Both the position numbers and the translations under genes were made by a program. The notes below the pieces were generated by a model. That model searched no databases and was not told the DNA's origin. It saw nothing but the letters and a program-made list of their open reading frames with translations. From an uncultured Chloroflexia bacterium (GTDB lineage: Bacteria > Chloroflexota > Limnocylindria > Limnocylindrales > CSP1-4), in contig CAWHXD010000019.1 in NCBI GenBank assembly GCA_963833225.1, positions 885,759 to 949,758 of the forward strand: a DNA stretch of 64,000 bases. The letters are read 5' to 3'. This document shows, in pieces, positions 32,091-35,118 of this stretch. The stretch's first letter is position 1, and the number at the start of each line of letters is the position of its first letter.

Positions 32091-33047
32091 CTACCACCGG
32101 TCTGCCCCGCGGCCGGCCCTGCCGCGCAGGTGAGCGAGCACCTGCGGATCGATCCAGCCCGGCGCCGCGGTCCGCTCCTCCAGGTTCTCGACCGCCATCC
32201 ACGCCAGCAGGCGATCCTGCCAGGCGGGATCCCAGCCATCCGGCAACGGTCGTGGCTCACCGACGCTGGGCCGCGATTCCTCGGGCTCGGCCTCGTCCGG
32301 CCACATCGGGACGTAGAGGGAGCTGCCGGCGTTGGCCGGATCCCAGCCGAGGTGCCCGAGATGGCCGCGGATCTCGGCAGCCAGCGACGCGTCGAGGGCG
32401 ACGAGGTCGGCGGGTGCCGGCCGGTCGAGGAGCAGGTGCGTGAGCTGGAGGAGGCGGCCAAGCTCGCCGACCGGGTCCGCGTGGTCGTCCACGCGGAGGT
32501 CGATCCAGCGATCGTTGGCGCCGCCATAGCCGCCGCCCTCGCGCACGATCAGCAGGGCCGCCGACTGACGCCCACGCCGGTCGCCACCCGCCGCATCGGC
32601 CGCGGCGAGACAGGTCACCAGGAGCTCGGGGAATGGATGGCCCGCGGCTTCGAACGTGTCCGCCAGCGCATCGACGACGCCGGCGCCGGCGAGGATGTTG
32701 CCCTGGGCCGCGTAGCCGGGTCCGGTTCGGCCGCCCGCCCAGGCAAAGCACGAGCGGCCCGTGTACGTGGCCGATCCACCGCTCGCGTCCACGATGCCGG
32801 CCTGGCGCTGCGATCGGAGCGGGTCTGCCTCGACGAGCGAGGCGAGGGTGGCTTCCGCGTCGGTTCCGCCCGCGAGCATCGCCAGCCCATCGGGCCCGTA
32901 GGTGACGTTCGCGTAGGACTGGGTCGCGATCGCCCCAACGCCGGCGCGCGCCCACGGCACCACCGATCCCACGGACAGGAACTTGGACTGGACGGCGATG
33001 CCTAGGTCGCCGGTGGCGCGGTCCCGCGCAACGATGGAGTAGGTCAT
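32091..33047 (-). CDS. DUF1028 family (Ntn-hydrolase-like) protein
   Basis: MTYSIVARD, GAIATQS, QGNIL, GGDRRGRQSAALL and DLRVDDH motifs. Confidence 0.9.
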   Translation of the reverse strand: MTYSIVARDRATGDLGIAVQSKFLSVGSVVPWARAGVGAIATQSYANVTYGPDGLAMLAGGTDAEATLASLVEADPLRSQRQAGIVDASGGSATYTGRSCFAWAGGRTGPGYAAQGNILAGAGVVDALADTFEAAGHPFPELLVTCLAAADAAGGDRRGRQSAALLIVREGGGYGGANDRWIDLRVDDHADPVGELGRLLQLTHLLLDRPAPADLVALDASLAAEIRGHLGHLGWDPANAGSSLYVPMWPDEAEPEESRPSVGEPRPLPDGWDPAWQDRLLAWMAVENLEERTAAPGWIDPQVLAHLRGRAGRGADRW

Positions 33048-33200
33048 GGCGGGTGCCTCCTTGGCGGCCAGCGTAGCGCGCCGGGTGGGGGAGACGGACG
33101 AGCCGCACGCGTCGATCGCGGGCGGCTCGCCTGACTGCGCGAGATGGGCGGGTCGATGCCCGCGTGGCTGCAGGGTCCGGCGGGTCGATGCCCGCCTCGA

Positions 33201-33585
33201 TCAGCTCCTCGCCAGCGAGTCCCGGATCTGGGTCAGCAGCTTGACCTCGTCGGACGGCTCCGCGGGCGCTGCCGGCTCCTCCTTGATCAGCGGCCCTCCC
33301 GATCAGGAACACGACCAGCGCGACCACCACGAACACGATCACGACCTGGATGAAGTTGCCCCAGCGGATCGCGACCTCCGTGGCCGCATCGCCACCAACC
33401 GCCTCCTTGAGCACGATCTTGAGCGCCGTGAAGTCGACGCCGCCGAGCAGCACGCCGATGGGCGGCATGATGATGTCGGCGACGAGCGAGGACACGACGC
33501 TGCCGAGCGCGCCGCCGATGATCACGCCGATGGCCAGCGCGAGCGCATTCGTCTTGGTCAGGAACGCCATGAACTCCTTGAGCAC
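33201..33585 (-). CDS. mscL: Large-conductance mechanosensitive channel (frameshift ~33295)
   Basis: MLKEFMAFL...LAIGVIIGGA...SLVADIIMP...WGNFI; C-terminal EVKLLTQIRDSL in the shifted frame. Confidence 0.9.
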
Positions 33586-33601: not shown

Positions 33602-34150
33602 TCAGGTGGCCGCATGACCGGGCATGCGGCCGTACAGGTCAAACCTTATGGTGCCTCGCGCACCTCGGCCAGTTCGCGCACACTCGGTCATCCCCAGCAC
33701 CCCGAGCAGGCGATCCACGAACGTCGCCTGGGCCGGATTGAGCCGCCGCCTCGCCTCGGAGGGGCTGGCCCACAGCACCCGATCGATCTCCGGGACGCTG
33801 ATCATGCGGCCGGACCGCGGTGGCCACTCGACCTCGGCCCGCATGCTCACGAGCCGGCCTGGGTCCAGGTCGCCCTCCTGGGCGAAGGCATGGACGACCT
33901 TGCCCGAGCGCATCCGGACCTCGCCCAGATCCTGCACCTCGCCGTCGGGCGGCCGCTGTCCGGTCTCTTCCTCGAATTCGCGCCTCGCCGCCGCGAGCAG
34001 CTTCTCGTCGGGGAGCGGTGCGCCCTTGGGGAGCGACCAGGCGCCGGCGTCGCGACGTGCCCAGACGGGGCCGCCGGGGTGGGCGACCAGGACCTCGAGC
34101 CCGTCGGCGGGGCGACGGTAGAGGAGCAGACCGGCGGACAGCTTGGCCAT
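33602..34150 (-). CDS. NUDIX hydrolase
   Basis: SAGLLLYR, HPGGP, WSLPKG...AARREFEEETG and EWPPRSG motifs. Confidence 0.9.
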   Translation of the reverse strand: MAKLSAGLLLYRRPADGLEVLVAHPGGPVWARRDAGAWSLPKGAPLPDEKLLAAARREFEEETGQRPPDGEVQDLGEVRMRSGKVVHAFAQEGDLDPGRLVSMRAEVEWPPRSGRMISVPEIDRVLWASPSEARRRLNPAQATFVDRLLGVLGMTECARTGRGARGTIRFDLYGRMPGHAAT

Positions 34151-34184
34151 GGGCTTCCCGATCCTGCGCGGCGCACACGAAAGC

Positions 34185-34363
34185 GCCCGAAGGAACCGTA
34201 CCGCACCGACTCGCCCACGACACTGCCAAGCAAGCTCGGCCCTGCCGCAGCGGCTCCAGTCCCACCACCCCTTCGGCCTTGCGGCCTCCGTGGCGGCGGT
34301 TCCGGGGACCCGGTCCGATCATCGCTGACCGGTCCGGCGTCGGTACCACCGGCCCCTTCGGGC
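34185..34363 (-). ncRNA. Highly structured ~180-nt non-coding RNA (6S-like size, family not assigned)
   Basis: 14-bp terminal helix, internal helices and GCGA/GCAA/CUUG tetraloop hairpins; G-U pairs work only on the minus strand; the promoter places the TSS at its 5' end. Confidence 0.7.
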
Positions 34364-34370
34364 AAACCGA

Positions 34371-34399
34371 ACGATATCGGTCGGGGAGGGAGGTGCCAA
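34371..34399 (-). promoter_or_regulatory. Sigma70-type promoter of the ncRNA
   Basis: TTGGCA-N17-TATCGT with 7 nt to 34363. Confidence 0.65.
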
Positions 34400-34404
34400 C
34401 CAGG

Positions 34405-34479
34405 TTGTCCACGAGTTTCGGTCCGGTGACGGCGAAGTTGTCCACGACTGCGACGCGCGCGTGGACAACCTGTGGACAG
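34405..34479. promoter_or_regulatory. Cluster of four DnaA-box-like 9-mers
   Basis: TTGTCCACG at 34405 and 34438 (+); TTGTCCACG at 34460-34468 and CTGTCCACA at 34471-34479 (-). Confidence 0.55.
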
Positions 34480-34485
34480 CCGGCC

Positions 34486-35118
34486 TCACGCTTCCTCGGT
34501 GATCACGCCTCGCGCCGAGCGGGCCGGGGCGACCTCGTGATGGCGCAGGCAGCGCGCCTCGTACGTCTCGACCGCGGGGCCGTCGAAGCCGCCGATCACG
34601 ATCAGCGGGTCGTCGATGGCGGCGGGCCGGCCGCCGACCAGGCGCTGGGTGCGTGTCGCCGTCTCGCCGCACACGACGCAGATCGCCGAGAGCATCGTGA
34701 TCTCGTCCGACATGGCGAGCAGCGCCGGCATGGCGCCGAACGGGCGTCCGGCGAAGTCCGTGTTGAGGCCGCTGGCGATCACGTGGCGGCCCGACTGGCG
34801 CAGCATGTCCGCGACCTGCGCGACCGACTCGTCGAAGAACTGGGCCTCCTCGATGCCCACGAGGTCCACATCACGCTCGCGCGCGAGCGAGAGGATCTCG
34901 ACGGGCTTGCCCTTGGGGACCAGCACGGACGGGTAGCGGGCCTTGCTCCGGCTCTCCGCGTAGTCGCTGGGCGTCCGGTCATCCACGTCCGGGCGGACGA
35001 GCAGGATCCGGCGCTTGGCGATCTCCGCCCGGCGGAGCAGGCGCAGCAGCTCGTCGGTCTTGCCCGACGACATGCAGCCGGCGATGACGTGGAGCCAAGG
35101 ATCGGCGCGGTAGAGCAC
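34486..35118 (-). CDS. tdk: Thymidine kinase
   Basis: GCMSSGKT, EEAQFF, GLNTDF...PF, C-x2-C and YEARCLRHH motifs. Confidence 0.93.
   Translation of the reverse strand: MLYRADPWLHVIAGCMSSGKTDELLRLLRRAEIAKRRILLVRPDVDDRTPSDYAESRSKARYPSVLVPKGKPVEILSLARERDVDLVGIEEAQFFDESVAQVADMLRQSGRHVIASGLNTDFAGRPFGAMPALLAMSDEITMLSAICVVCGETATRTQRLVGGRPAAIDDPLIVIGGFDGPAVETYEARCLRHHEVAPARSARGVITEEA

Follow-up and report, generated by a model that had tools for sequence, protein, structure and literature searches.

On the minus strand of the window, as we call the whole 64,000-nt stretch of DNA analysed here, lies an unannotated gene for a stand-alone structured bacterial sRNA with an unprecedented design of constant clamp, exchangeable cargo and DnaA boxes. 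The RNA, of about 180 nt, is real, discrete and abundantly transcribed. Sequence comparison places it as the long subtype of a multi-copy modular family in which the ends and promoter stay constant and the cargo between them is swapped, a family that in the genomes sampled is found in just one family of the class Limnocylindria, an uncultured lineage abundant in soil and freshwater. We favor the reading that this is a free-standing small-RNA gene and that the family consists of DnaA-controlled, stable, protein-bound structural RNAs, and put its probability at roughly 0.6.

The locus, its promoter and its transcript

Coordinates are positions in the window unless a contig is named, and the features are collected in Table 1. 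The RNA gene is flanked, on its own strand, by genes for thymidine kinase (tdk, 34486-35118) and a NUDIX protein (33602-34150), the start codon of the latter lying 33 nt past the RNA 3' end. A further minus-strand ORF, at 32257-33585, bears an MscL domain in its first 100 residues; at 442 aa it is about three times the usual length of MscL, and it has either a long C-terminal extension or has been called over-long in G+C-rich DNA. Of the 24 genomes of the genus, 23 carry the tdk-RNA-NUDIX locus together with its boxes and promoter (79-93% identity), and the one that does not is 69% complete. In the genus alignment, conservation covers the RNA, the -10, the -35 TTG and the box cores, and the intervening spacers drift. 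One genome (G008) carries the entire locus twice, on two contigs (L002 and L026, 93% and 92% identical to the window), which could come from mixed strains in the assembly or from a true duplication.

A promoter scan of 33900-34700 found TTGGCA-17-TATCGT, of the sigma-70 type, as the sole promoter-like site (mean 0 in 50 shuffles), and the -35 TTG and -10 TAnnnT are retained in most of the aligned relatives. A search of sequencing runs with a 1.2-kb stretch returned 20 runs, each with less than 0.2 of its words, of which 6 are recorded as RNA; contigs were examined from four RNA runs belonging to four studies (X15, X16, X18 and X20). X15 yielded one 181-nt contig, at depth 16 and with 3 differences, that coincides exactly with 34183-34363, so that the 5' end matches the predicted start, G34363. 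Two 170-nt contigs from X18 lie wholly within the RNA, at 34186-34355 (depth 126) and 34183-34351. In X20 a contig over 34186-34356 is bordered on both sides by adapter-like letters, which we take to be Illumina adapter, and other pieces reach depth 320. The depths of contigs within the RNA were thus 16 in X15, 126 in X18 and 65-320 in X20, as read from contigs that give neither strand nor exact ends. In these three runs most of the flanks had no contig cover, which we do not take to mean that they are silent, and short low-depth pieces fall in the tdk part. The X16 contigs (3-13x, 14-29 differences) span the RNA 3' end into the NUDIX gene and represent either some read-through or DNA carried into the library.

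The RNA 3' end falls at the end of the clamp helix, where the contigs stop (34183-34186). A U-rich tail follows the clamp directly (GCUUUCGUGUG at 34184-34174) and, conserved as it is, is mostly missing from the contigs. This tail, GCUUUCGUGUGCGCC, is the likely termination signal; the terminator scan of 33900-34700 called no classic terminator, because the stem encloses some 150 nt. These results bear out the sequence-only reading in its main points, namely that an unannotated structured ncRNA is transcribed here from a promoter of its own, starting near 34363. That reading had staked its case on a discrete transcript and on covariation in relatives, and both were found, the first in the contigs and the second in 42 of 59 pairs.

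Table 1. Features of the RNA gene, its upstream region and related loci of the same genome. Positions refer to the window, or to the contig (C) that is named.
Feature	Position	Strand	Remarks
DnaA-box-like site 4, TGTCCACA (RNA-sense reading)	34471..34478	-	orientation opposite to boxes 1 and 2; core conserved in genus, spacer drifts
DnaA-box-like site 3, TTGTCCAC	34461..34468	-	within one of the genome's only three 3-box clusters
DnaA-box-like site 2, GTGGACAA	34438..34445	-	corresponds to the family-wide forward bins -95 to -85; genus alignment
DnaA-box-like site 1, GTGGACAA	34405..34412	-	ends 5 nt upstream of the -35 hexamer; corresponds to the family-wide forward bins -55 and -50
Promoter	34371..34399	-	-35 TTGGCA (34399-34394), 17-nt spacer, -10 TATCGT (34376-34371)
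RNA, about 181 nt	34183..34363	-	5' end G34363; 3' end about 34183-34186; metatranscriptome contigs and fold z
P1 terminal clamp, 5' half GCCCGAAGGGGCC	34351..34363	-	near-invariant in 55 distinct long-subtype sequences; common to all subtypes
Arm P2	34307..34341	-	GNRA tetraloop cap (GCGA), A.A-flanked internal loops; 12 of 14 pairs changed on both sides
Arm P3 (apical)	34256..34305	-	GCAA cap; 10 of 12 pairs changed on both sides
Arm P4	34212..34252	-	CUUG cap in this genus; 13 of 13 pairs changed on both sides
P1, 3' half GGUUCCUUCGGGC	34185..34197	-	yields two conserved G.U pairs
U-rich tail GCUUUCGUGUGCGCC	34170..34184	-	conserved across the genus; similar tails in other subtypes
73-nt copy (L081)	C19:161379-161451	-	same contig as the window copy, outside the window; GCGAUGACAUCAAGG loop; three DnaA-box 8-mers and own promoter
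155-nt copy (L206)	C8:about 72965-73121	+	other contig; three tandem GCAGGUGCUUGCAC hairpins; three DnaA-box 8-mers and own promoter
2-box pair (L205)	C6:30458-30494		upstream of gidB/rsmG; TTGACG-17-TACCGT promoter, about 70-nt leader
2-box pair (L207)	C8:444241-444275		upstream of parA-parB operon; consensus DnaA boxes

Fold and covariation of the long subtype

The 181-nt minus-strand RNA has a folding energy of -116.2 kcal/mol (z = -6.56; none of 200 shuffles folds as well), compared to z = -2.16 for the plus strand; the structure is therefore strand-specific, as had been claimed from the letters alone. Its ends pair over 14 bp, 5' GCCCGAAGGGGCCG (34363-34350) with CGGUUCCUUCGGGC (34198-34185), and the hairpins CCGGUCA-GCGA-UGAUCGG (34315-34332) and GCCGAG-CUUG-CUUGGC (34225-34240) are likewise present, as is, in the MFE fold, the apical arm CCGCCGCC/GGUGGUGG capped by GGCC-GCAA-GGCC; all of these elements had been picked out beforehand. 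Another predicted element, an 8-bp GUACCGAC/GUCGGUGC helix, stood in part: it occurs in the single-sequence MFE fold, but the comparative consensus keeps just its outer 4 bp (GUAC/GUGC) and lacks the inner 4. That consensus has, at the base of the first arm, GAC paired to GUC.

RNAalifold applied to 25 sequences from the genus gave a four-way junction, with P1 of 14 bp plus 4 bp and arms P2, P3 and P4 capped by GNRA, GCAA and CUUG loops, respectively. In other genera arm P4 bears a GAUCACAUCAAGG-type loop instead of CUUG. We then counted pairing in 56 long-subtype sequences (55 of them distinct) from the genus and from other genera. In this alignment, which was fitted to the model structure so that pairing counts are inflated, 94.5% of cells are paired, compared to 81.2% in shuffles (0 of 500 reach the observed value), and slid controls are 28-50% paired. 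Changes on both sides were seen in 42 of the 59 pairs, a count that overstates independence because the sequences compared are kin. The changes fall in P2, P3 and P4, which covary; P1 hardly varies, and its two G.U pairs are retained in 54/55 and 55/55 sequences. Across genera, conservation of the long subtype outside the clamp is limited to the tetraloop regions. The body of the RNA is a four-way junction with three capped arms, a fold that covariation supports.

The clamp-ended family and its DnaA-box-like sites

A covariance model built from the genus alignment and used to search relatives found matches in 80 of the 108 family genomes searched and in none of 42 from a sister family, the weaker matches being shorter RNAs with identical ends. 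Common to the members are a 5' GCCCGRAGGGGCC and 3' GGUUCCUYCGGGC clamp, which forms a near-invariant 13-bp helix with two tandem conserved G.U pairs, the U-rich tail, a -35 TTGnnn / -10 TAnnnT promoter, and GTGGAYAA words just upstream of the promoter. The window RNA possesses this clamp (34363-34351 with 34197-34185), tandem G.U included. The interior between the clamp halves ranges from 47 to about 190 nt, and recurrent subtypes are 73 nt, about 83 nt, about 85 nt, about 145 nt and about 180 nt long. The pattern of both clamp halves was found in 107 of 137 genomes of one Limnocylindria family and in none of the genomes of four sister families of the class (0/16, 0/92, 0/153 and 0/2, or 0/263 in total); the reversed pattern, used as a control, had no match anywhere. 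The short subtypes, sought in public genomes, gave at least 120 stretches; most of the titles listed are Candidatus Limnocylindrales/Limnocylindria, Chloroflexota or uncultured Chloroflexia, and a few of the listed stretches have other labels. This points to Chloroflexota, class Limnocylindria, and away from the Actinobacteria that a G+C content of 71% might bring to mind. Rfam has no family for the clamp-ended RNA, and a search of openly accessible articles gave no description of it. A literature search on Limnocylindria turned up no regulatory RNA.

This genome (3.9 Mb, G+C 71%) has three family copies, namely the window copy, a 73-nt copy and a 155-nt copy; as the genome is 86% complete, the numbers of copies and of box clusters are lower bounds. 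Rfam searched at E<=1 with the 73-nt copy, the 155-nt copy and the gidB leader gave nothing. Tandem family members at intervals of 250-900 nt, every one with boxes and a promoter of its own, occur in G129, G119, G065, G420, G130, G086, G077 and G055, which suggests local duplication as a source of new cargo variants. A loop word, GAUC(G/A)CAUCAA, occurs 59 times in 159 distinct copies, moves between subtypes (for example L062, L063, L079 and L081) and takes the place of the P4 CUUG cap in other genera; the window RNA has no loop of this type. A minority form of the loop, GAUCACCUCAA, resembles the 3' end of 16S rRNA. The idea that the loop word of the other subtypes mimics the anti-Shine-Dalgarno was dropped; the CACCUC type accounts for 9 of the 59 occurrences, and GAUCGCAUCAA and GAUCACAUCAA are commoner.

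The family promoters are preceded by 1-4 8-mers at fixed positions. These upstream words match TTGTCCAC or TTATCCAC, the general DnaA-box consensus; the window copy has four of them, at 34405-34478. Of the 175 copies with full flanks, many of which are orthologues and so not independent, 164 have an exact 8-mer within 200 nt upstream, compared to 8 downstream. Among the same 175 copies, forward boxes start in bins -55 and -50 from the RNA 5' end (128 occurrences) and in bins -95 to -85 (129 occurrences), and reverse boxes in bins -110 and -105 (24 occurrences). The whole 3.9-Mb genome contains 110 such 8-mers, which form only six clusters (at least two boxes inside 120 bp). Clusters of the 3-box kind occur at the three family loci and nowhere else; the three 2-box clusters lie upstream of gidB/rsmG, upstream of parA-parB and inside a coding region. 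Degenerate copies of the box word, CTGTCCACC, TTGTCCACC and GGGTCCACA, are found in the dnaA-dnaN spacer. DnaA boxes are the best reading of these words, although the 8-mer could serve another regulator. The position of box 1 could let an activator touch RNA polymerase. As an observation apart from the RNA family, gidB/rsmG and parA-parB are candidate members of a DnaA regulon in this lineage. Literature searches on DnaA yielded no sRNA family with DnaA as its regulator; in an article returned for DnaA boxes and sRNA, 'sRNA' is an old term for tRNA and has no bearing on the window RNA.

The genes around the RNA are not shared beyond the genus. A tblastn search with the tdk, NUDIX and MscL proteins and a fourth neighbouring protein gave 0 matches on 37 loci of other genera (L044-L080); the tdk-NUDIX interval, which had been proposed as a route to homologues, served within the genus (23/24 genomes) and failed outside it. 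Neighbours in other genera include Rieske, MFS, VWA, MoaA, pyrophosphatase, DnaB-like, FabI, cupin, CitMHS and metallo-beta-lactamase genes, some of them convergent, and no shared neighbouring gene was found around 13 + 5 loci of other genera. At locus L044, for example, a family RNA with four DnaA-box-like sites lies beside an MFS gene. Because the neighbouring genes differ between genera, the RNA probably acts in trans. As to a protein partner, a search for TROVE/Ro60 (PF05731) was negative in all 101 genomes of the family that were searched and in this genome, with control matches obtained in Deinococcus and Bacteroides; Ro60 is thereby ruled out.

Proposed function, alternatives and known systems

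We propose that DnaA occupies sites at about -45 and about -85 and thereby controls, most likely activates, transcription of the family genes; RNA output would then be linked to replication or growth state. Transcription would end in the U-rich tail once the clamp forms, and the tail would then be trimmed back to the helix. The invariant clamp may be a recognition and stability handle for a common, putative protein; its tandem G.U pairs have been retained even though G-C pairs would be more stable. The cargo, which is almost fully paired, would act in trans as a module for structure or protein binding rather than supply a base-pairing seed. A bolder version, which we regard as speculative and rather doubtful, is a scaffold-and-cargo arrangement in which one protein reads the G.U end helix, the cargo arms recruit partners, and DnaA switches the set on as an RNA output arm, perhaps with feedback on initiation or a link between cell cycle and metabolism; regulators of this kind are not known from the phylum.

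An own promoter, a terminator and several paralogues under one regulator are the pattern of known multi-copy sRNA families, and the genes described here, which are trans-encoded and have their own promoter, a terminator-like tail and several paralogues under one putative regulator, conform to it. As base-pairing regulators, with the DnaA-box promoter as input, they would use loops or junction strands to pair with mRNAs, and the 11-nt word GAUC(G/A)CAUCAA of the other subtypes could be a seed. However, nearly every base of the long subtype is paired and its loops are 4-nt GNRA or CUUG caps; the part that is conserved is a double-stranded clamp and not a single strand, and what else is conserved between genera is limited to the tetraloop regions. 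We consider a seed-bearing sRNA unlikely.

The DnaA boxes of this genome are most closely packed at the family loci, more so than in the dnaA-dnaN spacer, and box positions at these loci are fixed, as might be expected of a DnaA-binding locus that acts at the level of DNA, in titration or recycling like datA/DARS or the Bacillus clusters, with the RNA a secondary product. This account appears very unlikely. Selection on the RNA is clear from the compensatory changes (42/59 pairs) and from the abundant discrete transcripts, the G.U pairs of the invariant clamp would be mismatches on the other strand, and three loci with 3-4 boxes each would be few for titration.

The sequence-only reading had inclined to a divergent 6S- or Ms1-like RNA, with a new class as the alternative. 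Such an RNA would bind RNA polymerase by open-promoter mimicry, as 6S does with the sigma-70 holoenzyme while templating product RNAs, and would replace the seemingly absent 6S of this lineage. Its size of about 180 nt, end-to-end closing stem and high abundance in RNA libraries are consistent with this, and RF00013 matched 35 of 151 sampled Chloroflexota genomes but 0 of 17 from the class Limnocylindria, this genome among the 17, so that a 6S of the class, if there is one, goes unrecognised. Sister families without the clamp family lack 6S matches too, however, so that the want of a 6S match does not set the carriers apart. The comparison with Rfam that had been suggested gave no real match, either with Rfam 15 at gathering score over the entire window or in a cmscan of 34100-34520 with all 4227 families at E<=10, which returned just GRIK4_3p_UTR and nhaA-II at chance level and neither 6S nor Ms1. 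RF00013 searched against the whole genome at E<=10 gave nothing. Nor does the fold resemble the 6S rod with its large central bubble: covariation gives three arms at a junction and no bubble, the place of which is taken by two long helices (P2 and P4) with pair changes on both sides, the side arms being helices of 13-18 bp. Paralogues of 73-90 nt, with the same ends and promoter, are too short for 6S. A 6S-like role is thus highly improbable, and the new-class alternative is the one that holds, no Rfam family matching.

A cis-acting leader or riboswitch of the NUDIX gene, to which the short same-strand distance and the low-depth X16 contigs joining the two might point, is largely refuted by synteny and can be dismissed, as the contigs of the three other runs stop at the clamp and the same subtype adjoins unrelated genes in other genera (0 tblastn matches on the 37 loci).

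Our preferred reading remains that of stable, protein-bound structural RNAs under DnaA control. If DnaA does drive these genes, they would constitute an sRNA regulon of the replication initiator, of which we found none described, and would provide an entry point to growth-state signalling in organisms that have been seen only through metagenomes. The 13-bp clamp with its tandem G.U pairs is a concrete bait for an RNA-binding protein. The design, in which end clamp and promoter stay constant and the structured cargo can be exchanged, is one absent from Rfam. The transcripts are abundant in environmental RNA libraries and may be useful as activity markers for the Limnocylindria lineage.

Several known systems share single features with this family. 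The Y RNAs and YrlA/YrlB, partners of Ro60/Rsr, have ends that form a conserved terminal helix as a protein handle, a variable interior and several paralogues. The clamp family is similar in its end-formed conserved 13-bp helix and its variable interior (47 to about 190 nt), but differs in having no TROVE/Ro60 gene, no Rfam Y or YrlA match and no conserved adjoining protein gene. Ro sites typically carry a bulge in the helix, whereas the clamp helix is perfect. The window RNA resembles 6S (RF00013) and Ms1 as an abundant, stable transcript of about 180 nt whose ends form a closing stem, and departs from them in its four-way junction, in the lack of a covariance-model match and in belonging to a family with 73-nt members. 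It is also similar to orphan RNAs such as the raiA motif, being of the class of about 200 nt, with a multi-helix junction, GNRA caps and a lineage-restricted distribution; unlike them it has no Rfam match, and the orphan RNAs in turn have no shared clamp with exchangeable cargo.

On the side of regulation, the Bacillus subtilis DBCs and the E. coli datA and DARS are non-origin clusters of DnaA boxes. The clamp loci likewise have tight clusters of 3-4 predicted boxes away from oriC, with fixed spacing and orientation, but each cluster of the clamp family is tied to the promoter of a structured RNA that is clearly under RNA-level selection. Qrr1-5 (LuxO/sigma-54) and PrrF (Fur) are sets of several paralogous sRNA genes with sites for the same regulator at a fixed distance from the promoter, and the clamp family, as paralogues with the same predicted regulator sites at a fixed distance from the promoter, follows this plan with DnaA, rather than LuxO/sigma-54 or Fur, as the putative regulator. 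Whereas Qrr1-5 and PrrF conserve a single-stranded seed, the clamp family conserves a double-stranded end clamp and exchanges the interior wholesale.
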